Assembly: GCA_012295275.1 (NCBI GenBank)
Contig: CM022676.1
Coordinates: 15,686,001 to 15,750,000 of the forward strand
DNA from: Chrysomallon squamiferum
Lineage: Eukaryota; Animalia; Mollusca
DNA length: 64,000 nt
Direction of reading: 5' to 3'
Below the pieces are notes generated by a model that saw only the letters and a program-made list of their open reading frames with translations, ran no database searches and was not told the origin of the DNA. Of this stretch, positions 9,018 to 57,519 are shown one piece after another (position 1 is the first letter of the stretch; the number at the start of each line of letters is the position of its first letter). The position numbers were made by a program, and so were the translations under genes.

Positions 9018-9070
9018 TAGATTGTCTAGTATATCTTGCGTATGTGTTCGATGATGTGTGAACATTATCT

Positions 9071-9270
9071 NNNNNNNNNNNNNNNNNNNNNNNNNNNNNN
9101 NNNNNNNNNNNNNNNNNNNNNNNNNNNNNNNNNNNNNNNNNNNNNNNNNNNNNNNNNNNNNNNNNNNNNNNNNNNNNNNNNNNNNNNNNNNNNNNNNNNN
9201 NNNNNNNNNNNNNNNNNNNNNNNNNNNNNNNNNNNNNNNNNNNNNNNNNNNNNNNNNNNNNNNNNNNNNN
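9071..9270. other. Assembly gap (200 N)
   Basis: Run of n. Confidence 1.
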
Positions 9271-9529: not shown

Positions 9530-11045
9530 TTAAAATTTTTTGTTTTTAGGAAATGCAAAAGATGAACATGTGCATGAAACAAGGTAACACTGACTCATAG
9601 TAGGAATTAATATACTTTATTATTTTTTGTAACAGTGTATGTGTTGATGAATATGTGTTAATGTATAACAGCGACTGTACATTTTATTGCTCACAAATGA
9701 ATGAATATATTTATTATGGAAACGAAACTTAAGAGTCTACTGATAAAATATCCTTTTCCAGTCGGTTATTTTTGTGTTGAAATGAAGCTTTCAGTTCTAA
9801 ATAATGAACACAGTTCAGAGGTTCTATAACCATTGAATCTTAACCGTACGTAATTCCCGATTGATGTCCAAATATTTCTGTCTAGTAGCCTCTGGTCTCT
9901 TGACTATTTTGGGAGTGATGACACATTTTGTCTGGACATAAGTTCTCACTCTCGAGGCAACATTGGGCTGTAGTCGTCAATGTTAGTTACTTTTACACCG
10001 TTTTAGACGTATCTTAAATGTGTTGATTGATTAATACATCTTTCTCTGAATGAGAAAACTAATCCGTTCAGATCCAGAATGTATTATACTGATCATATGA
10101 TAACCATATTATGTAATGGTCACATACCTTTAACGGATCTTTTATGATATGATGTTTCCTGCTGTCAGTGTCCAATCTTAACCACCCAGTTTTCTTTAAC
10201 AGAATGACCGAAGGAGTACATCACTATTTGGATTCCGTTTTTCTATTCAGACAATTCGCTTGACTTATAACGGAACCTAATATCTTCAAACTTCACTGTC
10301 GAATTTATCTTTTTGTTTTTCGTTTGATATATTTCCAACCAAGAGTAAGTGTTTGTATCTCAGTATATGTAGGCATGCTATGGACCATCTTCTTAACAAA
10401 GAGTGTCTGCCTATGTGTCTGTATTTGTGTATTTCTGTTTGTGATGTGTGTTTATTTGTTTATGTATATGCATGTATGTAAGTCATCTGTCCATTTTTTT
10501 GTTTGTACGTGTGGGTATATTTTATATGTGTATGTGTGTATACATATATGTCTATGTGTGATGTGTGCATTTGTTTGTGTTTGTGTGTGATATGTATATG
10601 ACGTCTGTCTGTACGCCCCTTTTTGTCGTGTTTTCATATATAAAGATTGAACTGTATAAGAAAGCAAAATCACATAAAATAGAACGAGTGTCTGTTCAGT
10701 AGTCATCGTGAAGAATGATCGGCTATGATTATTTCATGTAACGCCTTTCATATTTAATGTCGTTCATATAAATAATGCGGATACATCGAGTTGGTTGTCT
10801 TATAGCATTTGCTTTATGTATGGGCACGTAAATATGTTAATGTGTGTGGGTTTGTTTGTGTTATTATCCAAGAATCCATAGTTACATTATTCAGTAATTA
10901 CCTTTTAATTAACTATTATTTACTTTTATATAGTTATTTATTTTGTTAAATATATTCTTTTTCTCTCATTTTCTTATGTATGTTTTATTTTAACGTATTA
11001 GTCAATAACTGTATTGCTCTTCTTATTATTTTTATAAATGTTTTT

Positions 11046-11079
<34 letters not shown>

Positions 11080-12047
11080 AAATTATTTAATTTTTTATTT
11101 GAATTTTTTTTTTCAGTTTTAATTGTAAATAGTTATAAATTTATAATTAAAACTGAAAAAGCTACCACTTAGAACACTTGTCTCTTTCAAATCACAGGAA
11201 CGTTTCTGAACCGCAGTCTCGAACGTACGACAATCTTGCTTTTGAGCCTGGTAAGTGCAACATTTTCTAAATGTTTATTTGAAGACTTACTTTACTGAAA
11301 GCTGTTTAAATTCTGCTCGTTCAATACATATTAAGACGTCTGTGAATCAGGAAAATGAATGAAGCTAAAAGGAAGTGATCAATGAACAAGAAAATAAAGG
11401 ACTATGAAACAGAATGGTGAAAAGTAATAATGAAATAATAATAATATAAAAAGTTTTCATTTATATACTGGGCTAAGAACGTGTGAGTTATTTTGCATAA
11501 CGTTAATGAGATAAGATCTAATTTATATTATCTCCTCAGATATGCAAAGTTTAATATTTGTCTGTGATAAATACAGAGTGTTTATAAACTAATGTTTGTG
11601 CAGTATGACAGGTTGTTTTATAAGCACCATAAACCAATTTCTATCTTAATAGCTGAGTAAATTAGAATCTGGTGAAGTTAGGCTGTATATCGCGTTTGAC
11701 ATTGTTTTCTCTCTGTCACTTCTGTTTTTTTATTTTTTATTATTTTTTTTTTTTTTTTTATGTATGTATATATATATATATGTATACACACATATATATT
11801 ACTTTATTTAATAATCTGTTGTTGTTGTTTTTTGTTACTTCTACGTTTAATTGTTAATGTATGACTTACTGTTTTTGAAACGAAACATAAATACGTATAT
11901 ATGTTTTTACTATGTCTTGTAGGGAACAGTCCAGAACCGAATCTGTATGAAGTACTTAGTGTCAAGGATAATGGACGAAGAAATTAATATATCTCTTTAT
12001 TAATGTGTTTACTTATAACATCGAAACAGCTTATTTTGTCACTTTTA

Positions 12048-12122
<75 letters not shown>

Positions 12123-12250
12123 TACACACATATATGCATTTATAGGATCAAATATTATAACACCTATTCACCATTATTGAATTTTATTATTCAGGAAAGC
12201 TAGTTAAATATGTACCTTTTTCATTTTCATACAATAACGCCTTTAGAGCC

Positions 12251-12283
<33 letters not shown>

Positions 12284-13095
12284 CAACAACTAAAAAACGT
12301 ATATGGGTTCGATACTTCTGTTATGTTTACATGTGTAGTATACAGTATTTGTTGGTATATTTTATGTGCTACAACTACAGTCTAGTAAAAGTGTGGCTAA
12401 CTGTGTCTATTATGATTCTGCTTAAAGTATATCTAATAGAATTGTGATTAAGTGTGTCTAGTAAGATTCTCATTAAACAAAGTCTAGTAACAAAAATGTG
12501 TGGCGTTGATTTTTTGTGCAGACACATGCACTAAACTCTCGGACTTGAGGACAGTAAATTATAATGATGATGAGTTATTATCGCACAGAACAATAATTTT
12601 TTTAAAAAAGAGACTTGATTATTATCCACCGAACATAATGCAGTTCAGCAAACATGTTTATAGTTTGTTGTTTGTCGTCATAGCAAAATACAATTGAAAA
12701 TGAATAAAATAAAAATAAAAACTCAGTGATGAGCATTATAACAAATTTCCTTTCTTTACTTACTACAAGAGTTGTGTAACGACATCTCACCTAAATGTGC
12801 CTGTAACAGCAATATGTCCTAAACATTTCTACAACAATCAAATTTACAAAATGTTCTGCCCTTCTTAATCCAGTTGTGCTTCTCGCATGACTATTGTCTT
12901 CAAGTCGATGCTATTTAAATATCACCTCATCTAGCGGACGTCAAAACAATCAACTAAAGACTGAATTACATCACTGGTGAAAACAGGTCTCTACAGTGAT
13001 ACTCAATTGGTTTAGTATAATCAGTTATATGTTACACATATATTTGTATGCCACATTTGTCTACATAATAATCTATAGCTTCATCATTTAAAAAT
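9530..13095 (+). repeat. Segmental duplication, paralogous to ~42960-46320
   Basis: Colinear shared exon, intron and 3' blocks, e.g. TTCAGAGGTTCTATAA, TTCTCACTCTCGAGG, TCGCATGACTAT.GTCTT.AAGTCG.TGCTATTTAAATAT and ATTTGTCTACATAATAAT. Confidence 0.85.
9550..11987 (+). CDS. Three cytoplasmic-tail exons of an Ig/FN3 receptor (9550-9583, 11198-11250, 11923-11987); upstream exons missing or lost in the gap
   Basis: GT-AG exons in consistent phase give GNAKDEHVHETR-NVSEPQSRTYDNLAFEP-GNSPEPNLYEVLSVKDNGRRN*. They are paralogous to 42989-45091; the first two exons have identical sizes (34 and 53 nt). Confidence 0.7.
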
Positions 13096-17324: not shown

Positions 17325-17803
17325 CTGAAACAAAAATATGATTCAAGAATTATAATTTCTGTCAAGGTCTTTTTTCGATTTTTTTTTTCTTTTGTATAAT
17401 CCTATGGAATAGCTGGATATAGGGACTAAACCATCATTAAACGTAAAAGTTACTAGATCTAGGTCGAAGGCAACAGGAAAAAATAATTAATGGTGAATAT
17501 AAAAATAACATAAAGAAGTAAAGAAAAATATAAAGAAATAAAGAAAACAAATTATAACTGAGAAATAAGTAAATAAATAGACAAATAAATAAAATTATTT
17601 AGATAGAACGGAAATATGTAAGATCTGGATATATGCGAATCAGCCAAAAATGAGATACATAAAGGTAATAATTTAATAACAAATACAAAATATTTCGATA
17701 TTAATATAAAACCATTTGACGTTGTTTTAAATATGTAAATTTGGACAAAGTCATCTATACGTTTTTAATTAAAAACAGAGATACACAAATACAGTGTTCT
17801 CAC

Positions 17804-19276
17804 CTGCTTCACATTTCAGCCAGCCTTCCGTACTGAAATTCATGGTAACTTTGTCTGTAGAAACGTAACGAAGAGATATTTCACTTGAAGGAAGGAAAGG
17901 AGCCCGCGATTTAACTATTTCTTGACGTTCTGGAGTAAAGGCATTTCCATCCATAGCGAACTTTTTAATTACATCAGTAACATCATTTGTATTGTCTGTG
18001 ATTTTCTGTGACTGTTTGGCGTTGTCTGAAGCTGATTTTAGATCGATTAGCAGTTTCAGTCTTTTCGTTTCATTGTCTGCATCGAATTGCTCCTGCTTCG
18101 TAAATATTCTTCTGTCCTTCGATATCCATGTCTCGAAACGATCCACGTCTTTCCCATGTTCACTGATCCCCATCTTACGAAAATATGTTTTAAACGTACG
18201 ACAGTTATTTTTTAGAGCCATAAGCATCTGACGCAAACTGATTAAACTTTGTCTTTCGCAATAGTCTTTTCTTTCCTGCTTTATTAATTCAAGCTTGATA
18301 TAATCTACGTCCAGTAAAGTCTGTTTGATGACGTCTCTATATCTTCCACTATGTCCAATGACCACGTTGCAGCGTGGACAACGTTTCAACTGGATTGTGT
18401 TGGATTTCGACTCCATCAGCTCGTCGAGAGCTTGCACCTCAAAGATATGTCCGCAGTCTTCGAGCTGCACAAACAGAGAGTAATTTCGTTTATCAGACTG
18501 CAAAGCTTTCTCTTCATCTCTGTTACAGACTCGACAAAGATCAGGACACTTTTCTCCTGCCAGACCAATGCATCTGTGCTGACACGACAGGTTTTTCATA
18601 CACCGCTTGTTGGAGCATGGCATATTCCATACATCACAACATCGTCTACGAATGTTCATTCCCTTGTACCTGATGACGCAGTTTTCACGGCACACATACA
18701 GCGGTCACCACACGACCTTTCACAGCACAGATGGACACAGCTGTTCTCACACGGCAGAGGACAAAGTGGACACGTAGAACAGTCACTGACATATTCGTGT
18801 CCACACAGCAGACGTTTCCTCCATTTATCCTTGCAAGCAACGTGAAGTCGACCTTGAACACATCCGTGACAACTACCATGACAAATATGACCACATTTCA
18901 AAAGGGCGCTACACTTTACATTACAAACTGCTTTGTCTCCTTCATGACAAACCACTTCAATTTCATGATCACATTTCAAAACGGCGCTACACTTTACATT
19001 ACAAAGTTCTTTGTCTCGTTCAAGACAAACCACTTCAATTTCATGACCACATTTTAAAACGGTCAGGCATTTCGCATTACAAACAGCGCTGTCTTGTTCG
19101 TGGCAAACTACCTCAATTTCGTGCCCGCAGTACAAACCAACATGCTTTACTTGCTTCATGCATTTGATTGTACTTGCATCGGCAGAGCAAGGAATTTCTT
19201 GTTTGTGTCCGCACGCTGGTATCACCTTGGTAACGGGAGCGACACACTCTCTGCAATCTTCTTGTTTATGTTCCAA
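17804..19276 (-). pseudogene. ZNFX1: ZNFX1-like (NFX1-type zinc finger protein 1) C-terminal exon, 5'-truncated, with a frameshift near 18695
   Basis: NF-X1-type Cys/His repeats (KVIPACGHKQEIPC, CGHICHGSCHGCVQGRLHVACKDK), then CQHRCIGLAGEKCPDLCRVC, FVQLEDCGHIFEVQALD, IQLKRCPRC...RY and WLKCEAG|GTGAG, all typical of the ZNFX1 C-terminus. Two overlapping ORFs need one frameshift. No helicase exons upstream in the window. Confidence 0.85.
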
Positions 19277-19335
19277 TTTTAATTTTTATAACTGAAATTT
19301 TCTTTTTCTACTTTAGGCTTGACAAAACCTAATAT

Positions 19336-21800: not shown

Positions 21801-21967
21801 ATATAAATTACTGTTCACAGGAAACTGTAAAGCTAATTAGATGGTGGAAGGTTCACTGATGAAATCAGGTGAGAAGAGGCGACATTTGTTTCAGAGGTTC
21901 ATGTTTCTTTCTCTGTTTAAACACCAACTCGACCGTCGTCACCATCATTCGGACGAAGACAACAAAG

Positions 21968-22181
21968 ATGAAGGGAGTCGCTTTTCAGTTTGTCTTAGCG
22001 TTTCTTTGTCTGCTATTAGCGTTGGCCCAGTCTGTGCAGGTGTCTGACTCAGATGTTGAGACTGTCGAGTCGAAGAGAAGCCACTCAGGACAGAATCACG
22101 GCTTTGATCCGAAGTCGCTTTCTAAACGAGACATCATCCACCCGAGTAAAGTAGGAGATAAAATATTCCAGCCGAAACTGG
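21968..22181 (+). CDS. Secreted prepro-protein, exon 1 (signal peptide and propiece)
   Basis: MKGVAFQFVLAFLCLLLALAQS signal-like segment, acidic stretch, two KR sites. Donor G|GTGAGT, phase 1. Confidence 0.85.
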
Positions 22182-23386
22182 GTGAGTTTGTTTTATTTCC
22201 TTCTCCTGTAAAACATCATCATTATCATTATGATCATCACCATCACCATCATCATCATTATCATCATCAGGATATATAATTTGCGAAATTCCTAAAAGCT
22301 ATCTTTAATCTGTCATGGAAAATATAATGCCTAATTCGGATATGCATTTTAGTTCTTTTTTTTTTGTTATTATATATCTGTAATGCATTTTTCTCTGTAC
22401 TGTTTCCTATAGTTTATGATTATCAAATCATTTCATTGTACACTTCGGACTTCGGGTGTAAATTCCAGAAAATAAGAAAAAGAAAGACAAGTTATATAAT
22501 ACTTAGTTTGTCAACAATTTTCCAAGGACGATCACATCTGAAAAAACTGACGGCAGTTTCCGCGTAATTAGGTTACCATGTGGTATGAAATGATCGCCAT
22601 TCTTTGAAAGCTTAACAAATAATGATGACATACATCTTGTAGTTACTATACTGAGCTAAATGAACAAAATTATTATTAGTGTTGAAACACTCATTTAGAG
22701 TCAGAAGCAGAAATCTGTATAAAATACGTATGACGCACACTTTTCACTGTCTTATTGAATTGGTCGCAATCAGAGAACGAACTTTCTAAAACAAAATTAA
22801 TAGAAGATTTTCCAACAAATCCACTGTGTACAGAGAAAGATTTATCTCTAGACAGATAAATGACACTTTGTCAAAGCAAAATGAGACAATAACACATAAC
22901 CAATCATTTGTCACAAAGGTAAAATTAAATGTCTACATGTATACATGTTATGTATCTAATAAAACAGGGACTTTAACAACATATTTTATACACATTCATG
23001 GCATAAGTGATAAAATGATTTAAGAAAAGTTTTATTCTGATGTTTGTTTAATACTACTGATAGCCTACTTTCTCAAATTTTCACCTCTGCGTACTGGGTT
23101 TCTTAATTCTAATCTTTACCATGTCATTCTGTTCAGTCCATCTGAGTTGATTCAGTTTGTACACAAATTAAAAAAAAAAAAAAAAAAATCAATACCTGTG
23201 TTGATTGTCAATTGCTGTTAACACAAAAACAAGGCATGTCAGCAGCTATTCTTGCACTTTTATTACTAAATATAATTTCGGTGCCCGACTGCAAAACGTG
23301 TTCAAGTCATCTTTGGACAAAATAGAGGCAAAATGTGTCAATAGTTTCAACTTCCAAGTGATATATATATTGTATTTTTTGAAAGA

Positions 23387-23476
<90 letters not shown>

Positions 23477-23737
23477 AATAAATAAATAAATAAATGCCAC
23501 TTAGACTTTGCCGCGGGTTAAAAGAAAGACGAAGTTTTGTATAAAATGGTGAACATTTCAACCAGGTCAACTTATCGGCAAATCAACGCGTAATCACTGG
23601 CAAATCTCAGCTAGATATTTAACTGTAACATTTGTAATAAAACATATTCAATTTTTTGGTGGTTTTGATCTTTATAAACTGTCACTCTGTATTTAACTGC
23701 GTAGCTCTTTCATCCCAAGGGAATCCGGTGTTGACAA

Positions 23738-23847
<110 letters not shown>

Positions 23848-23939
23848 CTCTCTCTCTCTCTCTCTCTATCTGTGTGTGTGTTTATTAATAAGACAAAACA
23901 TCAATTAATTATTATCATTATGTTATTTATTTATTTATT

Positions 23940-24040
<101 letters not shown>

Positions 24041-24054
24041 TTTTTCACTTTCAG

Positions 24055-24213
24055 ATCTTTGGTCTGCTAGGAGGCAGGTAGAGAACGAAACTACTAGAAG
24101 CAAGAGGCTCTTTTATTTGAGGAAATATATTTGGAAAGCCCTTCTTCGCACATTAAAATTCATAAAGAAAACATGGAGTGGAAGGCGCATGACAATACAG
24201 TACTCTAAACAAG
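24055..24213 (+). CDS. Secreted prepro-protein, exon 2 (furin site and cationic amphipathic peptide)
   Basis: Acceptor TTCACTTTCAG, open in phase 1: DLWSARRQVENETTRSKR|LFYLRKYIWKALLRTLKFIKKTWSGRRMTIQYSKQ. Donor AAG|GTGAAA. Confidence 0.8.
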
Positions 24214-24425
24214 GTGAAATACGTCTACTTCTTTCTGTTTCAAGGTGAAACGGTTTTTTAAATTTAGAGTGTTCATATTTCAACTTTTCGTTGCGGTTTA
24301 AAAAGTGATATTAACACACACAAATATTCAAATACACGAACAAACAGGCATAGAGACATGCACATAAATTTGGATTTCGTCTTAATATTTTTGTTTTGTT
24401 TTTCGTTTTATTTTATATTTTAAAG

Positions 24426-24640
24426 GTGGTTACTCTGCAGCTTCAAGTGACTACAGTAAACTAAAAGTGGAGGGTAGCAGGCCAATCAGCGGTAAGAACG
24501 GACTCCAAGGAAACACGGGGAAGATTGGTGACTGGAAAATTACGGTCCGGAACAAGAGCTCTGGCAAAAATCCGAAACCAACCCTGTCATTTACGTCAAA
24601 GGATGGTAGAACTGTAATAAAAATCAGATACAAAAATTAA
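24426..24640 (+). CDS. Secreted prepro-protein, exon 3 (basic domain resembling bacterial polymorphic-toxin C-termini)
   Basis: Acceptor ATTTTAAAG, open in phase 1: GGYSAASSDYSKLKVEGSRPISGKNGLQGNTGKIGDWKITVRNKSSGKNPKPTLSFTSKDGRTVIKIRYKN*. AATAAA at 24685. The toxin similarity comes from motif recall, not a search. Confidence 0.75.
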
Positions 24641-24722
24641 CACGTATTTCTCTATTCTTGGTTTTACTTAAAGAAAAGTTCTTCAATAAAACAAATAAAT
24701 TATGTTTAAAAAATTGATCTGA

Positions 24723-26935: not shown

Positions 26936-29600
26936 ACACACAGAGACACACAGACACAGACAGACAGACATACTTATATTAGGTACCCAAAAGTGATTTT
27001 CATTTTGCAAGAAATAAAAGGTTTGATTTCTAACTATAATTGTATATGTTTTTTTAATCCTGAATTCAGTGATTTCAGTTTGGGAAATATAAGGCTGACT
27101 CCTATCTAAAACTGTAGATCTGTTTATGCTCATTTCAGGGATTAAAGACATTTACAGTTGTCAGTTAAACGGTTCAGTTATATCTGTATTTATATTTAAT
27201 GTGTTGGTGCGGTTGACGGATGTTTGTTATGTTGAATGAATCTCGATTTTTAAGGGTTCTTTTCCAAGCGAAATTTTCTCTGACAAAGTTTATTTGAGAA
27301 TATGTTATGCTAAGTGTTCAAAGCATATTCACACGAACAATAACAAGTACTTTATAACCTGTTTCCTTTTTAAAACAATGCAGCTTGTTGAAATACATAA
27401 GTAGACTGACTTCCTTCTTCTAGTTAAGTTTTGCAAAAATTTCATTGGCTGCTCTAACAGGAAGAAGAAAAACTGTAGACTAAATAAAGAAGAATATTTC
27501 ACCAGTTAGTTTTGAAATAATTCATAATTTCTTTTTTTCTGACTGAATCGATTTTTATAGTTATTGTTATTTGTTTTGTATTTCTACTGATGTTTATTTC
27601 ATATTATTATTATTATTATAAAACAATTAGAATGTCTCTCGATAACAAAAGGCAGCTGGTTTTATTTATGTTTGTATGATGCTATTTATTATTAAATTGC
27701 TATTATTATTATTATTAATTTGTATTTTGCCTCAACCTTATTAATTATTAATTATTTGTTCAGCCACAATACTAAACATTTCATTACATCATAAATGTCA
27801 GACACACAACTTATTTTTAAATTATTATTTGTAGACTGATTACAATTATTATTGTTGTTTTTCAAATTTCAGATTTTTGATATCCATTGTGAGAATAATT
27901 CAAACATGCGGACAGACATTTTTTTTTTCTGTATTTTTCCTATCATCTTTGTATTCTCATTCTGCACTCGAGTCTCTGGTTCCAAGTTGAATCTAAACTA
28001 ATTTCATGTAGTTGTTTTAGTTTTCCTTTAATTCTTCTTTCATCAAATAGTTTTTTAAATGTATTTTTCAGCATCATTAATATTTGTAAATGTCATTGTA
28101 ATTTGTCTAAAAATAAATACTGTATAGTTATCCCATACAAACTAATGACGTGCAGTTACTGGAACAGTTGAAATGGTTTCCCTCTGCATTTTATTTGGTA
28201 ACTAACAACTAATCTAATTTTAAAATAGAGGTCACAATGCCACTCTCCCATAAAAACAATAATAATAAAAAAAAAAAATAAAAAAAATAATAATAATAAT
28301 AATAAAACTAATATTCATAAAAACACTATTATTATTTTATTTTATTTTAATAATAATAAAATAATAATAATAATAAAATAATAATAATAATAATAAAAAA
28401 GTTGGAGACAACTTTTGACATAAGCCATGGCCAGCGACGACATGCACAGTTGGAAAAAGTTATAGTGCCCTTCCTAACTGTTCTGAAAAGAACACTAAAG
28501 CGACTTTTGTAGTTAAGTCAGGTAATGCATAGAGACAGAAATTTAGGACGTTCTACTAAACATAGTGCATTTACATCACCACGTTTAACACTGTCGTAAA
28601 AAGGATTTAAAACCCAACAAAAAAAAAAAAAAACCACCATTTAAAAAAAAAAAAAAAAAATACATAACCTGCAAATTTTAATAGCTTTGTCCACTGATTT
28701 TAGTTAGGCTGCCATCACATAGTATTAACAGTGGATGTTGATGTAGCAGTAGTACTGGTATTATTGTTAGTATAGTAGTATATATTAGAAGTGTATCAGT
28801 AGCTATAGTGTAGAGAAGTAGTAATAGCCAAAATAAAAATCATAAACAGTAGTAATAGTAGTAGTAGTTTTAGTGGTACTAGTAATAGTAATAGTAATCA
28901 TAGAGGTAGTAATTATTATAGTATTGTCATGCTAGTAGTAACAGTACTACTGGTAGTAATAAAATAGTTGTAATAATACAAGTATCATTATTAATAAATA
29001 CAGACAATGTTATTAAATCATAACTACTATCACGACTAAGCTGAATGATTTATTAAAAAAAAAAAATAAATTATCTGCAAAATAAAAATTAATGATTTTT
29101 TGTTTCAGTTCTAGGAGTAAAGTTTGGATTATATCAAGTGATACCAGTACTAAAAGGTGAAATGATGTATATGATGATTATGACGTGTCGTGTACACAAG
29201 TCTCAGAATCTGAATTCTGATATAAAGTTTATACATAAAACACAAACTGATAACACTACAGTGTGTGACTGTGTACAGAGACAAGACAGGTGTAACTGTA
29301 ACAGTACACAAAGTTACATTTGTACATGTGCTGGAAGGACAAACACCGCCAACAACAGCGAGTACAAAGATTACACAGTTTACAAGGATCATTCAACTGA
29401 AGATGACACTGGGGTCTGGTTTTGTGGATCTGATCAACTTGAAGTGTGGAGTGAACCAGAAGTTTCAGTTATTTGTAAGAAAATATTTCTCATTAGTGCA
29501 AAAAACAAACACATACTCACACACATGAGAGAACAGGTGGACACAAAGCAGCAAATACAATACGCAGTTACATTTTGGAATAATGAATACACATACACAC

Positions 29601-29631
<31 letters not shown>

Positions 29632-30145
29632 TTGCATTGTTACATTATTATTATTATTAATTTTCATTGGCATATTATTTTTGTCGTTGTTATTATTCTT
29701 TATTATTATTATTATTATTATTATCATTATCATCATCATCATTATTATTATTTCTGATTATGTTGGTGTTGTTGTTGTTATTATTATTATTATTATTATT
29801 GTTTTCAGCTACAAATCCTGGTTTATCAGTATATTCCTGGACGGCTGTCATCAATGAAAATTTCACATTTGTTTGTTCTGTTATCAGAAATATTTATAAA
29901 GAAGATATCACATTTAAACGAGGTGATGAGAAAATTTGTACATGTAAATATAAAACACACACATGTGAAACACACAGAGAGTCGACAGATAACTACAGAT
30001 AGAAGTTTGTACAAACTTTGCTCACAGGTACACGTTATTTAACCACTTACAATTTGACTGTATCTTCATTTTCTGTCAACGACTCTAAGTCATGGACATG
30101 CAACACTGAAAAAAATAAGAGTGAATCCATTACACCAACACCTAA
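25450..30145 (+). repeat. Segmental duplication, paralogous to ~33000-37225 (upstream region + signal exon + two Ig exons)
   Basis: Long near-identical blocks starting CTCAAAATCCGAAATATTCCTCAC at 25451 and 33002, colinear through the exons. Confidence 0.9.
25661..26082 (-). mobile_element. Possible old solo LTR inside the duplicated segment (second copy ~33189-33607)
   Basis: Higher-complexity block with short imperfect inverted ends (TATTATAAC...GTTAAATA) and a minus-strand AATAAA just before its end. Confidence 0.3.
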
Positions 30146-35385: not shown

Positions 35386-36262
35386 GTAAGTTGAATCTAA
35401 ACTAATTTCATGTAGTTGTTCTTCTTTTCTTCATCTTCTTCTTCTTCTTAAGCAAACAGTTTTTAGCAAATGCTGTTGTTGTGTTAGTGTCAGTAGTGGA
35501 GGTCATTGTAATAGTAATAGAATAACGGAGTGTAGAAGTAACAGTAGCAATAGTAAAAGAAACAGCATTAATAGTTGTAAAGTTATACTAGTACTGGTAA
35601 TTATACTACTAGTAATAATAGTAGATAAAGCAAAAGCAGAATCAGTACTATTAGCTGTTCTGACAATAGTAGCTATAGTAGTAGCAGTAGTAGGTATAGT
35701 AGTAGTAGTAGTAGCTATAGTAGTAGTAGTAGAACAAGTAGCAAAAGAAGAAGAAAAAGACGTGTAAGTGGTAGTAGTAATTACAAAAGTAAGCATAGAG
35801 TAAATCACTAAACATATTTTTTAATGAAATATCAGTGGAGGTAGTAGTAACAGAAGTACCAGTATTATAGTTGGTACGAATAGTATGTATTAGTAGGAAT
35901 ATCACTAGTACTACTAGTAGATAAGTAGTAAAAGTAGGAATAATAGCATAATCAGCAGTAATAGTAATATTACTTTTAGTGATAGTAGTAATAGTAGTAG
36001 TAGCCTCAGTGGTAATGTTAATAATTATTATTATTAGTAGAAATACTAGAAATCGTAAAAGTAATAGTATTAGTGATAGTAGTAACAGTAATTATAGTAG
36101 TTGAAGTAGTTGTAATAATAGTAGTATCGTTATCAATGTAGCTACTAATTTGGAATAGTAAAATACTATAATGACTAAATTCAGTTTTATTAGAACACAG
36201 TTAGCTGATTTATTAAATAATTAACTGCAAATAAAAATTAATATTTCCCGTTTCGCCTGTAG

Positions 36263-36610
36263 GTGTAAAGTTTGGATTGTTTCAAGTGATACCTGTACTA
36301 AAAGGTGATACGATGTATATGACGTGTCGCGTACACAAGTCTCAGAATCTGAATTCTGATATAACGTTTGTACATAAAACACAAACTGATAACACTACAG
36401 TGTGTGACTGTGTACAGCGAGAAGACACGTGTAACTGTAACAGTACACAGAGTAACATTTGTACATGTGCTGGAAGGACAAACAACGCCAACAGCGAGTA
36501 CAAAGATTATTCAGTTACTAAATACCACACAACTGAAGATGACACTGGAGTCTGGTTTTGTGGATCTGATGAACTTGATGTGTGGAGTGAACCAGAAGTT
36601 TCAGTTATTT
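36263..36610 (+). CDS. Ig receptor copy B: Cys-rich Ig domain D1
   Basis: Open phase 1-1 exon: MTCRV...CDCVQREDTCNCNSTQSNICTCAG...DDTGVWFC. Confidence 0.85.
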
Positions 36611-36831
36611 GTAAGTTATTTATATACACAGAAAACCGCATCCACATTTTGGAAGAATGAATGTATAAAGTGAATATTAGTGCCTTACAGTTATAACACA
36701 GCATATATACATACGTATATACACACACACATATGTATAAACACACACATGCACATATACATACATGCACACACTTAACAATTATGTTGTTGTTGTTCTT
36801 CTTTTCTTGTTGTTGTTGTTATTATTATTAA

Positions 36832-37222: not shown

Positions 37223-38648
37223 GTAAGTATTACTGTTATTCTTCTTCTTCTTCTTCTTATTATTATTATGATTATTATTATTATTATTACTATTATTATT
37301 ATTATTTGTATTGTTTTTATTAGAGGCAGTATTAGTATTATTGTCGTTGTTTGTGTTCTTGTTGCTGTATGAAAGACAGGTAACAGATTAAGCAATTTAA
37401 AGATATTTTGCCATTTCTTACCTGTTGATAGCAAATAGGTTTTCTTCATCAACATCCTTGTAGGAGACATTATGCGGCGTGATCTATGACGGTTTATCTT
37501 GTCCTACGTAAGAGAACAACGGCAAACAAGCTGGAGTCTTATAGCTCATCATCTCAAAGAGGGAGACTAGCTTGAAACAATATACAATTAAATATATATA
37601 TATATTTAATTCCTGTCATAAATTTCATCTCAGATGAACATGCTGCAATAAACAAAGTGGTGATTTACATTTTCAACACAATGACCTTTGTGCTTAGACT
37701 TGTCAAACGGATATTGTGTATTGACTCAATCCCCTTGGTGTCAGTGCAGTTTCAGAGCACCAGACTAGTGCTGAATCTTATTGAAGATTTAACCCGGCAT
37801 AATTAACACCGAAATGTATGACTCCATTCTACCTATTGGTAGTTTTCGCACTAATTTTAGGAAGGACACTTGAATTCAAATCTGCCTCAACTGAACTGGT
37901 TTGTTCCTCTTCAGGGTTAATAAATACACATGACAAAGTTTGTCTGGGAGATTTACCAATTGTAGTGGTACTAGTGTTGTTGCTAGTACTTGTAGCAGTA
38001 GAGGTAGTGGTGGTAGAACAGGTAGTAGTAATAGTAGCCGTTGTCGTGGTAGTAGTTATAGTTTCAGCAGTAGAAGCTAGCAGTAAAATAACTTATATAC
38101 AATGCATAAAGTTAACAAGAGTACTGGGGCCAACTTGTTAAATGAGCTTAATTTTTTGCATAGGTGTAAGTTTATCTGTATGTTCACAATAACATTAATA
38201 TTATTAAAAACTTAGTAAATTTTTAAAAAGTAATAATTTGCACTGATATAGTAGTAATTGAAGAAGTAGTAACAATAATAGTAATAGTTGTAGTGGTACT
38301 AGTAGTAGTACCATTAGAGGTAGTGGTGATAGTGAAGGTAGTAGTAGTAGTAGTTGTCGTAGCAGTAGTAGTTATAGTTTCAGCAGTAGAAGCCAGCAGA
38401 TAAATAACAGATATGTTAACAAGAGTGTTGAGTATTACAGTACTTGTATTAGTGGTAGTAGTAATTTATTATCAGTTGTAAAAGTAGTTGTAAAAATACC
38501 AGGATCATTATCAATCAAATTAAACTATACATTACTCATAACAAAAACTATAGTGACTAAATCAAATATGATGATTTCTATTAGAACAAAGTTAGCTGAT
38601 TTAATTAATCAATTAACTGCAAACAAAACGTAATGTCTCTTGTTGCAG

Positions 38649-38999
38649 TTCTAGGAGTAAAGTTTGAATTGCTGAACGTGAAACCTGTACTAAAAGGTGA
38701 AATGATGTTTATATGTCGTATGTTCGAATCACAAAATCTGACTTCTGATATAAAGTTTGTACATAAAACACAAACTGATAACACTACAGAGTGTGACTGT
38801 GTACAGAGAGGAGACACGTGTAACTGTAACAGTACACAATGTTACATTTGTAGATGTGCAGCACAGACAAACAATTCTAACAGCGAGTACAACGACTACA
38901 CAGTTTACAAGTATCAAACACCTGAAAATGACACTGGAGTCTGGTTTTGTGGATCTGATCAACTTGAAGTGTGGAGTGAACCAGAAGTTGGTGTAATAT
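38649..38999 (+). CDS. Ig receptor copy B: duplicated domain D1'
   Basis: Open 351-nt phase 1-1 exon homologous to D1. Confidence 0.85.
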
Positions 39000-39231
39000 G
39001 TGAGATAGTATTTATCATTACTGTAACACATACACACATACACAAAATACGTTTTGTGGAATGAATTCATAAACTGAATAATAGTACCTTACACTTATAA
39101 AAGACCATATATACGTAGTACGAACACTTAGTAATTTTGTTGTTCCTGTTGTTGTTGTTGTTGTTCTTCTTCTTCATCTTCATCTTCATCTTCTTCTTCT
39201 TCTTCTTCTTCTTCTTCTTCTTCTTCTTCTT

Positions 39232-40982: not shown

Positions 40983-41726
40983 GTATTTAAGTATCTGTCA
41001 GTCTTTCTATCGATTATCCATCATGTTATCTTTCTTTGTCTCTTTCTCTCTACATATATGTACATACACACCAGTTTACACACATTTTATTGATACAAAA
41101 AACCTAAAGTAATAGTAAAAAGAGCAAGTAATAAGTTCACTAATACATACACATGCACATATATACACAAGCACGCTGACAAACATACACATATTATATA
41201 CATACTTCACTGGGTGCCAGCATGACTCTGAAGTTTTAGTTTCAAATTGATCTACTAGACAAAAATCTTGTAAATAATTTTGTAGTCATAATTTGCATTT
41301 GTCCATTAATTTTACCTTTGAATCACTTTTTGGTTGTACTTGTTATTCGTCTTTTTTTTAGCTCTTGTTGTTGTTCATAATCTTGTTCTTTTTGTCTGTC
41401 TTGTTTTAAAATGTACACTTTTTCTTTCTTTTTTTTGATGTGATCTGTTTTTTCAGCGTCAACTGACTTGACTCTCTTTTTTGCCTACAAGGTCCACCGA
41501 GCATTCATTCCAGTGTGAACGTACAAAGATTCAGCTCTTCCTCCATCTCATTGTGTTGGACAGAGATACATTCACAGATATACACATATACAGAGAAACA
41601 CATACATACACACAAACAGGGACATGCTCAGACACGCAGACATATACACACACGCACAAGCTTTTTCTTGTTGAAATGGTCATGTTTAACATCGTTTATT
41701 AGCTTGACTGTGTTTTTTCCTACAAG

Positions 41727-42026
41727 GTCCACCGAACATTCCTTCCAATGTGAAAATAAAGAGAATCAGCTCTTCTGCCATCTCAGTGTCTTGGACAGAA
41801 GAATTTCACGGCGGCTTCGTGCAAACATTCATAGTACAGTACAGAGAAAACACATCAACACAGTGGAACAACGTCACAGAGAAATTTCTTGAACGTTGTC
41901 TACATACAACACATACAACAGTAATAGCGCCTCTGAAATCAGACACGAAGTATGTTGTGAGGATCTTGGCTTACAACAAATACGGAGATAAAGGTTTTAC
42001 AGATGAGAGATATATTTTGACAGCAG
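41727..42026 (+). CDS. Ig receptor copy B: fibronectin type III exon
   Basis: PPNIPSNV...ISVSW..EFHGGFVQTFIVQY...W...LKSDTKYVVRILAYNKYG, a nephrin-type FN3. 300 nt, phase 1-1. Confidence 0.9.
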
Positions 42027-42530
42027 GTATGCATATTAATAATAAGGTAAAATGTACACTGAATCAACCATTCAGCCCTAGCCTCCGCACCAAGACCAAC
42101 AGATATGGGAACTCGCAACCAAACTTGTGTATTGTGTAGCAGATATTATCCATGACTAAATAAGGCGCCTCATACCAATGTTCAGCCCTGCACCATGACG
42201 AGGTTACGCTAAAAGCAGGGGTAAAGATTTGAAAACAAACAAAACAAATGATATAATTGTACAAATAATAATAAGGTTGATGTTGTGGCTTTTACACATT
42301 TTTGCTTTTCTTTCTATTTTTTCATATACTGGTATTTCGTATACATAATTTTATCTGTAGCACCTATTTAACTGAAATCCTTTTTCTTTCTTTTTCCCAA
42401 GATTTATCTTACTAATTTTCTGGTGTTTTTTTTTCTTAATTGCTTGAAAATAAATGGGTTTGAATATAAGTAATTTCTAGTACTTTTATTTATAGTACAT
42501 CTGTACTGAGTTTAACAACTGTTGTTTCAG

Positions 42531-42988: not shown

Positions 42989-45091
42989 GAAGTGGAAAAA
43001 ATGAACATCACTATGAAAAAAGGTAATGCTAACTGATGGTAGAGATGAATATATTTGTTTGTAACTGTGTTGATGCATGTATGTCCTCGTGCATAGCAGT
43101 CATTACTTATTTCAATCCTTACACGAGTACATTTATTATGAAAATGAAAGGTTAAGAGTCTCTTGATAAAACATCCTATCCTGTTTCATAGTAGATGATA
43201 TTCTAACGTCAAAGGTTTAACTTTCCATTCATTTATTTGTGTGTTGAAATGAAACCTTTAATCCCAAATGACGTTCACAATTCAGAGGTTCTATAATCAG
43301 TGAATCTGTGAATCTGTGTGTTTAAATCTGGTTTATTGACGATCAAGGGAGAGTTGACACATCGCTGATCTGGATGTAGATTCTCACTCTCGAGGTAACA
43401 CTGGGTCGTCGTTTACAGTCGTGTTAATGAACTTCTCCACTGTTTTCAGGGTATTTTAGATCTGCATTTCATTAATACATCTTTCTCTGAACTGAGAAAA
43501 ATGATCCAAGATGCGTTACATTAATCTCCGTGATGAACGTATTCTGTGGCGGTGATCTACCAGTAGGCAATGTTTACATGATGTTTGCTGCTTTCAAACT
43601 CGAAGTTTTATCATCCAGTTTTCTTTAAGAGAGTGACCTAAGGAATTCATGACTAGTTAGATCCAGGTTTCCTATTTAGACCACGCGTCTGATTTGTACC
43701 TGAATCAAATTGTTTTAAACATCTCTGTAGAATTGATCCATTATTTTTCTCCATCTTTCTAGCAAAGAGTAAGTTCGTCTGTGTATGATATCTGTCTGTA
43801 AGTGTTTACGTTTCCTGTTTATGTGTGTGTCGTGTTTTCATTCAGAAAAATTCATCAGAGCAAGAAAGCGAAATTCGAGAGAAAGATAAGAACACTACCC
43901 TGATTGTGCCAGCTCGGTAATCATCGTAAAGAAAGATTGTTTACATTTATTACATCTAAAGCTATTCATATAAACACTGCAGATACATGCGAGATAGTTT
44001 AATCAATTATCTGATGAAGTTTGCTTTAGGTATGGGCATCTTTATATGTTAATATTTGTGTATTTTATGTTATTACCCACCAATCCAAAGTTACATTTTA
44101 CGGTAATTTCTTTTGAATTAACTTCAAAGTTTATTTCCTTTTATATAATTGATTAATGTATGTGTTGTTGTTGTTATTGTTTTTATTAATGTTGTTATTA
44201 TTATTATTATTATTATTAGTAGTAGTAGTAGTATTATTGTTATTATTATTATTAAATCACAGAAATCATTTGACCGTTAATTCTGAGTAGTTTGTCTGTA
44301 AATTTTATTATTAAAATTGAAAAATCAACTCATTTACAAATCTTGTCTCTTTCAAATCACAAAAATTGTTCAGAACAGCAGACACCAACATACGAAAATC
44401 TTGCTTCTGAACCAGGTAAGTGTAGCATGTTCTAAATGTTTATTCCAAGACACTTTACTTTACCAAAAGCGCTTTATATTCTGAAGGTTCAACAAGTATT
44501 ATTTTTTCTGGCAAGGCAATAAGGAGAGAATGAAGGAAGTAATGAATGAACAAATAAAGAAGGGGCATGAAACAGAAGGCCAAAAAATATTAAGAAATAG
44601 TAAAGATATAAAAAGGTTGTCATTTATATATTGGGCTATAAGCGTCTAATGTTATTTTGTATTACATGATTAACTAATAGAAATAATTTTAATTGTCTCT
44701 AAAGATATGCTAGTATGAAGTTCAGCATCTTTTTATGATAAATATAGAGTGTTTGTAAATTAATATTTTTCAGTATGACAACTTGTTTTATCAACACTGT
44801 ATGTTAATATTTGTCTGTGTGGTTGTAAATAGCAAACTGGTGATGTTACTCTGTCACTTTTCATATTTTTTTCTTTTTAAATCTGTATGCATCATATTAT
44901 TTATAGTGTATGAATGTGGTTTTGTTTGACTGTTTCTTCTACGTTTAACTACTGATGTATGAATTATTATTTCTGAAAAGTAACAAAACTATTTAAACAT
45001 GTCTTATTATTTCTGTGTAGGTAACAACCTAGAACAAAGTGGGTCAACTGAACATCATCCGTATGAAGTATTTGGTGTTGATGATAATTGA
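42989..45091 (+). CDS. Ig receptor copy B: cytoplasmic exons 42989-43022, 44363-44415 (acceptor mutated), 45021-45091
   Basis: GSGKNEHHYEKR-NCSEQQTPTYENLASEP-GNNLEQSGSTEHHPYEVFGVDDN*. The middle acceptor reads CACAA; the paralog at 11193-11197 has CACAG. Confidence 0.7.
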
Positions 45092-46799
45092 CCGAACGAT
45101 ATTCGTTACTAATGCATTTACTTAAAACTGCAACAAATAACTCATTTTAGTGTATCCACACGTACTTATGTAAGAATTAAGATAAACAAATTCAAAAAAG
45201 TAATTTCAGGAATTTCAGTATGCAAGATAACTAATTATATATGTATATTCCTGGTATATATGTATTTGTTTTCATACAAGAACTTTACTAGACATATTTC
45301 TTTGAAATGCAGTTTCATTCTTGTATTATGTTTATGTGAGAACAATTTAATATACAGTGTATGTTTGTGTACTTTTTATGTTCTAAAATGTTGTGTTTTT
45401 CTTTCGATGTTTAGAATTAACTGATACTGTACAGCATAATTTTATTTGTGGGAAATCTGTAAAACTGTAGATAGACTGTCTAGTCAAATTCTGATGAATC
45501 TATGTCTAGTAAAATTGTGATTACACTATGTTTTGTAAAATTCTAATTATCTGTATGCATTTAATTCTGATTAAACTATGTTTAGTGAAAACAACGCATG
45601 ACTTTGATATTTTACGCAAACATGTTATCGTCTTGGAAACATTAAATTATAATTGTGATGTGATACTAGAATCCAGATATTTTTTTTTTTTTTTTAAATT
45701 TACTTTATTATTATGCACCGAACATAAAACAGACCAAAATACTTATTTACAGTTTTATTATTACTCGTCAAAAAAAAAAAAAAAAAAAAAATACAATAAA
45801 AATAAATAAATAAATAAGTACAACTAATACAACAACAACAAGGACTACTATTACTACTACTAATAATAATAATAAAAAAACAAAATAAAAATAAGAAATC
45901 AGTCATGAGCATGATAACTGATTTCTTTCAATTACTTACTACAACGGTTGTGTAATCACATTTGTCACATAAATTTGTCTTTAGCAGTAATACGTCCTTA
46001 CCATGTCCACATCTATCAAATTTACACAATTTTCAGCGCTTCTGATATCAGTTGTGTTTATCGCATGACTATCGTCTTTAAGTCGGTGCTATTTAAATAT
46101 TAAGTTATCTAACAGACGCCAAAGAAATCAGCTAAACACTGAATCACATTCGAAATTACTACAACCTGTAAACATGACTGTAACTGGTTGTAGCTGTGTT
46201 AAAGTCACCAGTCTGTTCAAAAGATATTCCATTAATTTACTGCATTCAGTTATACATTACACATATATTCGTATTTCATATTTGTCTACATAATAATATA
46301 TGACTTCGTGATTTAAAAAACTAATTAAGTGTGGTATATATATATGATACTATATAGATTTTAAGACAGCAAAGAGTGAAATTAAGGAGAAATAAGCTCA
46401 CTTTATTAGTAATAATAAGAAAGTAAAATAAACAAGACACTAACTATATGTAACTATTACAATGAGTAATGGTGTAGCGTTGTGTTGAATAATGTATCTG
46501 AGCACAACATCTTGAATTAAAATAAAACCATAACATATAACTACATATATATATCTATAACAAATAACCAAGTAAAATATAACTGAAACACAAGAATGCA
46601 CGAGAAAAAATTCAAATGACGGCAGGTGAACATATAATAATTTGCAATATTATATATTTAAAATGTACTTAATGTCGGAGTTCTATAATTAACAAATATT
46701 TTATCTTTCCTTCAGCTTATATGTATTCATTTATTTATATATCATCATCATAATCATCATCTTTCTACTTATTCATTATTATTGTTATTACTAATTTAA

Positions 46800-56380: not shown

Positions 56381-56929
56381 CTAGAGAGAAAGAACGTGAG
56401 AACAGACGAATGAACTTTTAAAATATATTTTAGTAAAGAGGAATATGGAAGGGTGTTTGTTTGTACGTGTTTCTATGAGTTTGTTTGTGTGCAATTTTAA
56501 ATTTTAAATCTACACTAACTGTCACAACTACTATTGCTACTGCTAATTGCTACTTATATTACCTTCATTATTATTACTACTACTGTAACTACAATTACTA
56601 CCATTATTTTGTATTAATGTTCCTATACCACTACCACTATTTCTGTTACTACTGATACTACTACTACTGGATACTAATATTATCATCACTATTTTTACTA
56701 ATACTATCACTAGTGCTACTACTACTACTACACATTTTTAATATTACCGTCTTCTTTATTACTATTACTATAAACGTAACTACAGCATTATTAGTAATAC
56801 TGTTCCTATGACTACTTCCATTATTACAATTATAAAACTACTGTTACTTTTCCTACTGCCACTACCACCACAATGAGAACCACCGTCACAAAGCAAATTT
56901 AAAAAAAAGAAAAAAAAAAAAAGACGTAC

Positions 56930-57196
56930 ACAACACAATCAGTTTGAAATCTTGACGCATGGACTTCGACGTGTGCGGGTTGGTTGCTGTGCACGTGTAC
57001 ACGTCATGTGACTGGTTTCTGTTCTCAACTTTTAGTACGAAAGAACCGTTCGTACTGATCTGCTCGTTGTGGAACTGCCACGTGTAGGTACAGCGGGGCT
57101 GGCAGTGAGCGAAACAGTAAATGTTTTTGCTGCGTCCAATCTCCAAGTAACTAACCACTGAAGGCGTGATTATGACAGATTCAGGCCCAGCCGCCT
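56930..57196 (-). CDS. Minus-strand Ig receptor: Ig2
   Basis: GPESVII...IYCFAHCQPRCTYTW...DVYTCTATN. Confidence 0.9.
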
Positions 57197-57519
57197 CTGA
57201 AACATAAAATTGTATACTTTTATCTGTGATGTTTTTTTGTGTTTTTTTTTTTTTTTTCATGAGACAGGAACACTTTATCTGTTTCAAGCAAAGAAGAGGA
57301 AGTGAAAAGATGACGAAGAAAGAATAAATTAAGGTAAGCATACATAGAAACACATACGCGCTCGTACACACACACACACATCCACGCACATACACACTAA
57401 CACAACACAAACACGGACATAAACACGCATACACAAACTAAAACAGATAAATGTGCAAACACGTATGTAGAGCAATCAGACATAACCTACAGAAGTAGAT
57501 AAACACGCGCATGTACTGT

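Follow-up and report, generated by a model that had tools for sequence, protein, structure and literature searches.

The 64,000-nucleotide stretch of Chrysomallon squamiferum DNA considered here (contig CM022676.1, positions 15,686,001 to 15,750,000, hereafter the window, in which all coordinates are counted) contains an animal-type gene of three exons (21968-24640, + strand) that encodes a secreted precursor of 195 amino acids. The second exon holds in immediate succession the furin-type site Arg-Ser-Lys-Arg (RSKR), a basic segment of 24 residues (the 24-mer) and the tripeptide Gly-Arg-Arg (GRR). A reading made from the sequence alone took the 24-mer for a hidden, amidated antimicrobial peptide fused in front of a toxin-like domain, or, as an alternative, for a helix that stays attached to that domain. 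It is this alternative that fits the data on conservation and the predicted models. The 24-mer is probably the attached N-terminal helix together with the first strand (β1) of a basic secreted protein of 106 amino acids, which would be set free by a single cut at RSKR and would likely act as a defence effector. In proposing a hidden amidated peptide, the sequence-only reading most likely made too much of a Gly-Arg-Arg that arose by chance within a conserved structural motif.

The letters themselves were described correctly, that is, RSKR (24096..24107), the 24-mer (24108..24179) and GRR (24180..24188, codons GGA AGG CGC) are the exact translation of 24096-24188 on the + strand. The composition is also as claimed, with seven Lys or Arg and no Asp or Glu in the 24-mer and a charge of +7. 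The helical moment, which the sequence-only reading had proposed to calculate, is 0.47 on the Eisenberg scale at 100 degrees, the angle at which a scan over angles peaks, and reaches up to 0.66 for an inner 18-mer. Since 3.3% of 10,000 shuffles equal the moment of the 24-mer, this cationic segment is amphipathic somewhat beyond chance. RSKR is beyond chance because the cleavage site is kept in all 18 aligned homologs. The same cannot be said of GRR, as 46% of 20,000 shuffles of the 106-residue mature sequence contain one or more G[KR][KR].

Conservation and predicted fold in a gastropod family

Six proteins came up at E ≤ 1e-3 when the translation of exon 3 was searched with phmmer against 1.84 billion representatives. 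Four of these belong to the family, the closest with 49% identity (E 1.5e-10), and they are recorded as uncharacterised proteins of Gigantopelta aegis, Littorina saxatilis, Haliotis and Bradybaena similaris. The remaining two, P0005 and P0006, are long repeat proteins matched over short pieces and were dropped. A profile search gave 17 proteins, with the new genera Physella, Nucella, Batillaria and Babylonia and five unnamed transcript-like records, and all of the named relatives are gastropod proteins. The conservation counts given here refer to the alignment A2, which comprises 18 homologs and the window copy; P0008, P0010, P0012 and P0013, at least 90% identical to the Haliotis homolog P0004, are in no alignment, and P0009, P0011 and P0014 are in A1 only. 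Pfam, NCBIfam and PHROGs gave no match for the window exons, no Pfam domain was found in any family member, and searches for longer proteins with the domain found none. In addition, no paper naming a family member was found in the literature covered, which excluded subscription journals and supplements. The family would be an undescribed one, restricted so far to gastropods, and the accession numbers of its Haliotis and Bradybaena members hint at tandem paralogs.

The members have a common layout of a signal peptide, a propeptide, an [R]-x-[K/R]-R site and a cysteine-free, very basic domain. This mature domain is 105-113 amino acids long in the homologs (138 in Littorina), and in all 19 mature regions, the window included, there are no Cys, 17-28 Lys plus Arg and 2-7 Asp plus Glu. 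The isoelectric point (pI) of the mature domain is 11.5-12 in the homologs, and of the 17 homologs with a propeptide, 14 have an acidic one (pI 4.1-4.8). The segment that follows the cleavage site is basic and prone to form a helix; its core, [K/R]-[A/S]-h-h-R, is conserved and is kept in the window copy. Further on, A2 contains family-invariant H, E, R, T and Y residues. The propeptide of the Bradybaena similaris protein P0017, a gene-model prediction, has an extra basic helix-like segment between furin-type sites (A2 columns 201-290) as well as a short piece ending in Gly-Arg-Arg; from its sequence the extra segment may be a duplicated N-terminal helix that could be released alone.

The conservation of the two putative processing signals is quite different. 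RSKR holds up as a propeptide cleavage-type site, for the Arg at P1 is found in 18 of 18 homologs, the Lys at P2 in 17 and the Arg at P4 in 16, all three also in the window copy; P4 is Leu in both Haliotis representatives, and the residue after the site is hydrophobic in every family member. At the place of GRR, on the other hand, Gly followed by a dibasic pair is found in 0 of 18 homologs, which have GSR, GTR, GNR, GQR or GAKNR (Ser, Thr, Asn or Gln as the middle residue, or a three-residue insert). The window GRR is the G-x-R, with x = R, of the nearly invariant motif S-G-x-R-h-T-x-x-Y. Its second Arg is the family-invariant Arg of S-G-x-R, and its middle residue is basic in the window copy only. 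One homolog has a GRR elsewhere. The sequence-only reading had itself named a lack of conservation of GRR among the findings that would speak against it, and in the family GRR is indeed not conserved.

These counts bear directly on the explanation that cuts at both RSKR and GRR, followed by carboxypeptidase and PAM, yield an amidated 24-residue antimicrobial peptide and a separate C-terminal toxin domain. RSKR, Gly and the dibasic pair are all present and the 24-mer is cationic and amphipathic, so a precursor of this kind would resemble those of amidated linear cationic antimicrobial peptides in its signal peptide, its R-x-K-R site and its amphipathic helix; it would be unlike them in that the Gly-dibasic signal is missing at the aligned place in the homologs and lies inside a predicted folded domain. 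Moreover, the tripeptide is frequent among shuffles, as described above, and dibasic pairs occur in every mature region, one to four in each, at places that are not conserved. With this evidence on both sides, the release of an amidated 24-mer is considered very unlikely. The KR-flanked pieces upstream of RSKR, which had been offered as further products, are unsupported as such because they lie in a part of the propeptide that cannot be aligned with the homologs.

AlphaFold2 models of P0004, made with the family alignment, add a structural argument. The mean predicted local distance difference test (pLDDT) score is 84 for both the full-length model (m7fa0693c009f) and the mature-only model, with predicted template modelling (pTM) scores of 0.72 and 0.75, respectively. 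In the mature-only model residues 1-11 have a pLDDT below 50 and the helix at residues 7-17 has 42-68, so that this N-terminus with its helix is predicted to be flexible, and the domain from residue 18 onwards has 86-94. The compact domain of P0004 is predicted to consist of a β-hairpin that turns at S-G, together with a helix and five further strands, and in the full-length model the hairpin is formed by E110-117 and E120-128 with the turn at S117-G118. The P0004 segment aligned to the 24-mer ends in strand β1, which is followed by the turn Gly (pLDDT about 88-95). Transferred through the alignment, the helix of the window protein would take up about residues 4-14 of the 24-mer (24117-24149) and strand β1 about residues 17-24 (24156-24179). 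The 24-mer can therefore hardly be pictured on these models as a spacer peptide outside the folded domain, its last eight residues being aligned to strand β1 and the Gly of GRR to the hairpin turn. Since this Gly is the turn, a cut there would part strand β1 from its hairpin partner and would split the hairpin of a confidently predicted domain. Furthermore, the full-length model contains an acidic propeptide helix (residues 54-82, pLDDT about 95), which the model suggests packs on the basic domain and which may act as a built-in inhibitor until the convertase cut.

The processing of the window protein would accordingly be simple: the signal peptide would be removed and a convertase would cut at RSKR in the secretory pathway, the entire 12-kDa cationic protein (pI 10.8) would be secreted, and the attached amphipathic helix likely aids binding to anionic microbial surfaces, as in a putative defence effector. 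In this scheme the release, the target and enzymatic activity, if there is any, are our inference. A very basic mature part joined to an anionic propeptide is typical of antimicrobial precursors, and in the big defensins, too, the propeptide is removed by a prodomain cut. The mollusc big defensins are alike in layout, inasmuch as their cationic C-terminal domain keeps its hydrophobic or amphipathic N-terminal part (PMC3182236), although they are unrelated and have six cysteines as against none in the gastropod family.

Gene structure and divergence of the window copy

The coding part of exon 1 (21968..22181, +), recognised from the open reading frame, the sequence and an RNA contig, contains the start codon, the signal peptide and the beginning of the propeptide, in which there are two KR pairs, and ends in phase 1 at a GTGAGT donor. 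The signal peptide (21968-22033, +) is placed by eye at about the first 22 codons, with a hydrophobic N-terminus and a probable cleavage place at its end. Intron 1 (22182..24054, GT..AG, phase 1) carries (CAT)n, (AAT)n, (CT)n and (TA)n microsatellites. Exon 2 (24055..24213, +) encodes the end of the propeptide, with a D-L-W motif common to the window protein and the Gigantopelta homologs, then RSKR, the helix, strand β1, the S-G turn and strand β2, and again ends in phase 1, at a GTGAAA donor. Intron 2 (24214..24425, GT..AG, phase 1) is delimited by canonical sites, matching phase and collinearity with the homologs. Exon 3 (24426..24640, +), identified by phmmer and the alignments, encodes the remaining basic domain, modelled in the homolog as one helix and five strands, up to the stop codon at 24638-24640, and two AATAAA hexamers of the polyadenylation type (24685..24699, +), presumably functional, lie 45 and 54 nucleotides past it. 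The joined frame of the three exons has 195 codons with no stop inside, and the mature part of the window protein, 106 amino acids, has a mass of 12.1 kDa.

The joint of exons 1 and 2 is that of a 384-nucleotide RNA contig (run X2), which covers 21939-22181 and continues with the first 52 letters of exon 2; because the contig runs from 22181 to 24055, both this joint and the reading frame of the 24-mer are fixed. The 89 letters at the 5' end of the contig are absent directly upstream of exon 1. RNA runs X3 and X4 gave no contig matching the gene. The joint of exons 2 and 3 is placed, probably correctly, by the canonical sites, the phase and the homolog collinearity, and the codon split by intron 2 gives a Gly that is invariant in 18 of 18 homologs. 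No paralog of any exon was found within the window by tblastn. Variants seen in RNA and DNA contigs change an amino acid in nine of nine cases in exon 1, which encodes the signal peptide and propeptide, and the propeptide seems free to vary. In exons 2 and 3, five of the variants in DNA contigs are synonymous and two are not. The numbers for all three exons are small, and paralogs may be the origin of the variants.

The window copy is a divergent member of the family. Among the 18 homologs, 39 columns are conserved in 16 or more, and the window copy keeps 27 of them, or 28 when the split-codon Gly, absent from the exon rows, is counted. Columns invariant in 17-18 of 18 homologs have been replaced in exon 3 (H165W, E181S, R183T and R194I in P0004 numbering), and a further replacement, R136S, affects a column conserved to the same degree. 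In addition, its propeptide is not acidic (pI 9.6, as against 4.1-4.8 in most homologs). If the family is one of enzymes, the window copy would, from its sequence, act by binding rather than catalysis, and if the replaced residues are catalytic or ligand-binding ones it works differently from its relatives.

It might also be asked if the window copy is a decaying or non-functional paralog, with an intact frame, the residues needed in the family lost and no acidic propeptide. The five replacements and the propeptide pI speak for decay, and the sole RNA contig may stem from an allele or a paralog. However, the three exons are open in frame with canonical splice sites, more than two thirds of the conserved columns are kept, the variants in exons 2 and 3 are mostly synonymous, and a spliced transcript at least 95% identical exists, so that decay is regarded as improbable.

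Predicted resemblance to bacterial toxin domains

The toxin-like character of the protein was approached by an ESM Atlas structure search with the Atlas model of the Gigantopelta homolog P0002, residues 23-131 (the mature part), in which predicted models are compared with predicted models. Seven of the seven rows are bacterial: a 258-amino-acid cluster, 100% MafB (template modelling (TM) score 0.82 over 100 aligned residues, query 23-131, beginning at the first residue past KR), a 115-amino-acid protein (TM 0.82/0.78), a CdiA fragment (TM 0.75), a 130-amino-acid protein (TM 0.75/0.64), a PT-VENN cluster (TM 0.74), a filamentous-haemagglutinin (Fil_haemagg) cluster (TM 0.59) and an RHS/YD-shell cluster (TM 0.61). 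When the ESM Atlas was searched by features, P0004 and P0002 had the same three bacterial clusters at the top, with scores of 0.87 and 0.89, which the tool treats as leads only when below 0.9. In five of the seven rows the match starts at, or at most 10 residues from, the first residue past KR and thus takes in the helix. It seems from this that the helix belongs to the ancestral domain and is not the added antimicrobial module supposed when it was described as fused in front of the toxin-like domain. The label toxin-like itself has support from the predicted fold (TM 0.74-0.82) and the context, and none from the sequence, as no bacterial relative was detected by the phmmer and profile searches at their cut-offs.

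The C-terminal regions of MafB, of CdiA (after the VENN motif) and of Rhs-YD proteins are the closest systems for comparison. The likeness is that of a small basic α+β C-terminal domain, which superposes on the model of P0002 with TM 0.74-0.82 over 90-100 residues, helix included. The bacterial domain so matched is un-named and has no Pfam model. There are also clear differences: sequence similarity is not detectable, the gastropod gene has introns and sits among animal genes, a signal peptide, propeptide and convertase site stand where the bacterial proteins have their delivery part, and the window copy is without four residues conserved in its own family.

Solved structures in the PDB were searched with the mature-only model of P0004 by an exhaustive structural aligner whose top hit commonly reaches Z 7-8 even when no true relative exists. 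The matches include mouse teneurin-2 (9g42_B, residues 2570-2667, Z 7.5, root-mean-square deviation (rmsd) 3.1 Å, 87 residues aligned), a fly teneurin (8fia_A, Z 6.5, rmsd 2.6 Å, 71 aligned), a de novo designed protein (8kc0_A, Z 6.0, rmsd 3.7 Å, 72 aligned) and CdiA-CT (5t86_A, Z 5.0, rmsd 3.5 Å, 76 aligned), and bleomycin-resistance and glyoxalase-type proteins follow at Z 4.2-4.8. The teneurin region, probably the antibiotic-binding-domain-like (ABD) one, gives the best match among solved structures, at 14-15% identity, with a Z below 8 that is common for unrelated models and with no common ligand or function. In two teneurin papers the ABD is placed just upstream of Tox-GHH (PMC5851990, PMC6425310), and by mapping of the numbering the matched segment would be the ABD and not the nuclease. 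As to CdiA-CT, 5T86 is described as a BECR fold, and the active-site pattern of BECR RNases is given as D/E/N + H + R/K, in a preprint (10.64898/2026.05.10.723254). Among the conserved residues of the gastropod family are an H and an E, for which a place corresponding to that of the BECR-fold RNase toxins would be conjectural.

Several candidate relatives were tried and set aside. A scan of 185,579 prokaryote genomes for the motif of alignment A4 gave 44 pattern matches, of which the only one passing tblastn (34 residues, off-frame, on a GC (guanine + cytosine)-rich archaeal contig and overlapping longer open reading frames) was rejected as chance. The best PDB match by sequence, a designed repeat protein at E 0.017, was likewise taken as chance. 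Foldseek at E ≤ 1e-3 gave no PDB match for either P0004 model and none in BFVD. A nucleotidyltransferase resemblance of the full-length model (Z 4-5.5) was set aside for its low scores and for the absence of a conserved acidic pair in A2.

The same comparisons bear on the explanation that the family consists of prohormones or secreted signalling proteins, in which the basic domain is a ligand and not a defence effector or toxin. A signal peptide, propeptide and convertase site are indeed the layout of many prohormones, no enzyme family was matched, and the best PDB match, the teneurin ABD-like region at Z 7.5, is non-enzymatic. Against it are a cysteine-free mature part of pI 11.5-12 behind a propeptide that is anionic in most homologs, the predicted-fold matches, all of which are to bacterial toxin regions, and the accession numbers that suggest tandem paralogs in Haliotis and Bradybaena; a signalling role is judged unlikely.

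Animals have taken up bacterial toxin domains before, as with the Dae amidases. Transfers of polymorphic-toxin domains to eukaryotes have been catalogued (PMC3482391), a bacterial toxin origin is given for the teneurin C-terminal region (PMC5851990, PMC6425310) and biomphalysin is another bacterial toxin domain taken up by animals (PMC8047071). The gastropod family would be like teneurin, biomphalysin and Dae in that a bacterial weapon domain would be reused behind eukaryotic secretion signals, and unlike them in that the domain is a different one. On the models, the family would have arisen from a bacterial toxin domain or have converged on one, and the more definite proposition that it is a domesticated bacterial toxin domain is given slightly less than an even chance. 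A combined history, in which gastropods took a MafB/CdiA/Rhs-type domain as convertase-activated immune effectors and the window copy then lost its H, E, R and R, gained a Gly-dibasic site and releases an amidated helix, is very unlikely.

The reading favoured here, an attached helix and strand β1 in a basic secreted protein cut once at RSKR, has to be weighed together with a number of observations that count against it or against the defence role assigned to it. The AlphaFold2 models are those of the Haliotis homolog, transferred to the window protein by alignment at 35-45% identity, and a hairpin turn, being surface-exposed, would in principle be open to cleavage. The dibasic pair found in the window copy only, together with the loss of four family-invariant residues, has the look that would be expected of a shift toward a released peptide and is compatible with a new function, and the extra helix-like segment between furin-type sites in P0017 makes a free helix peptide conceivable in the family. 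The link to bacterial toxins comes entirely from predicted models, without an alignment or an E-value; no bacterial proteins appeared at the E-value cut-offs in the phmmer and profile searches, no toxin family was matched by sequence in Pfam, NCBIfam or PHROGs, and solved structures in the PDB are matched with middling scores at best (teneurin-2, Z 7.5; CdiA-CT 5T86, Z 5.0). On the transcript side, there are 12 mismatches to the window among the 243 exon 1 letters of the run X2 RNA contig, and 20 tested letters of the 5' end of this contig are found exactly at 44394-44413 and as 17 of 20 at 11229-11248; because of these mismatches and of the 5' end matching elsewhere, the contig may derive from an allelic copy or from a closely related (tandem) paralog. 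No RNA contig, from run X2 or the others, lies on exon 3 or spans intron 2. On balance, the sequence as described, the RSKR site, a toxin-like predicted fold of the family and the attached helix remain from the sequence-only reading, and the amidated release, the extra helix fused in front of the domain and the KR products do not.

Surroundings of the gene and significance of the family

The window is AT-rich animal DNA with many microsatellites. The animal context of the gene is seen in a BTB exon (385-843, −), a fibronectin-III (FN3) exon (41708-42136, +) and an Ig exon (56889-57437, −). A segment is duplicated (9755-13094 and 43222-46319, 73-85% identity), and its copies hold, within 11010-11621 and 44161-44791, two short exon-like pieces with a GTAAGT donor (11229-11250 and 44394-44415, +). 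The match of the RNA contig 5' end to the downstream piece hints at a non-coding first exon shared with a tandem paralog, whose coding exons would lie outside the window. On the − strand at 17769-19285 there are two long cysteine-rich open frames of 311 and 209 amino acids with repeated C-x-H-x-C, which have no Pfam match at E ≤ 0.01 and which we take to resemble NFX1-type zinc-finger proteins. Furthermore, three paralogous exons (29096-29857, 36235-36660 and 38609-39064, +) encode a cysteine-containing module of about 130 amino acids, a tandemly repeated gene or domain; Pfam gave no match for one of them (36235-36657). An assembly gap of 200 N lies at about 9070-9270 between (AAT)n and (TAT)n runs.

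As the proposed amidated peptide is probably absent, peptide synthesis can be spared on what would be the wrong product. What the locus reveals instead is an undescribed family of secreted proteins, very basic and devoid of cysteine, whose members occur in abalone, periwinkles, whelks, land and freshwater snails and a vent snail. Its occurrence in farmed abalone and in a snail group that hosts parasites (Physella) makes these proteins of practical interest as new immune effectors. If the combined history of a toxin turned peptide were true, the window copy would represent a toxin in the course of becoming a peptide precursor. The reuse of bacterial toxin domains by animals is already a known theme, of which the gastropod family would be a new, undescribed example; if the link to the toxin fold is true, it would be a further case of animals turning bacterial weapons to their own defence, and the propeptide, acidic in most homologs and cut off by a convertase, might then serve as an inherent safety catch.

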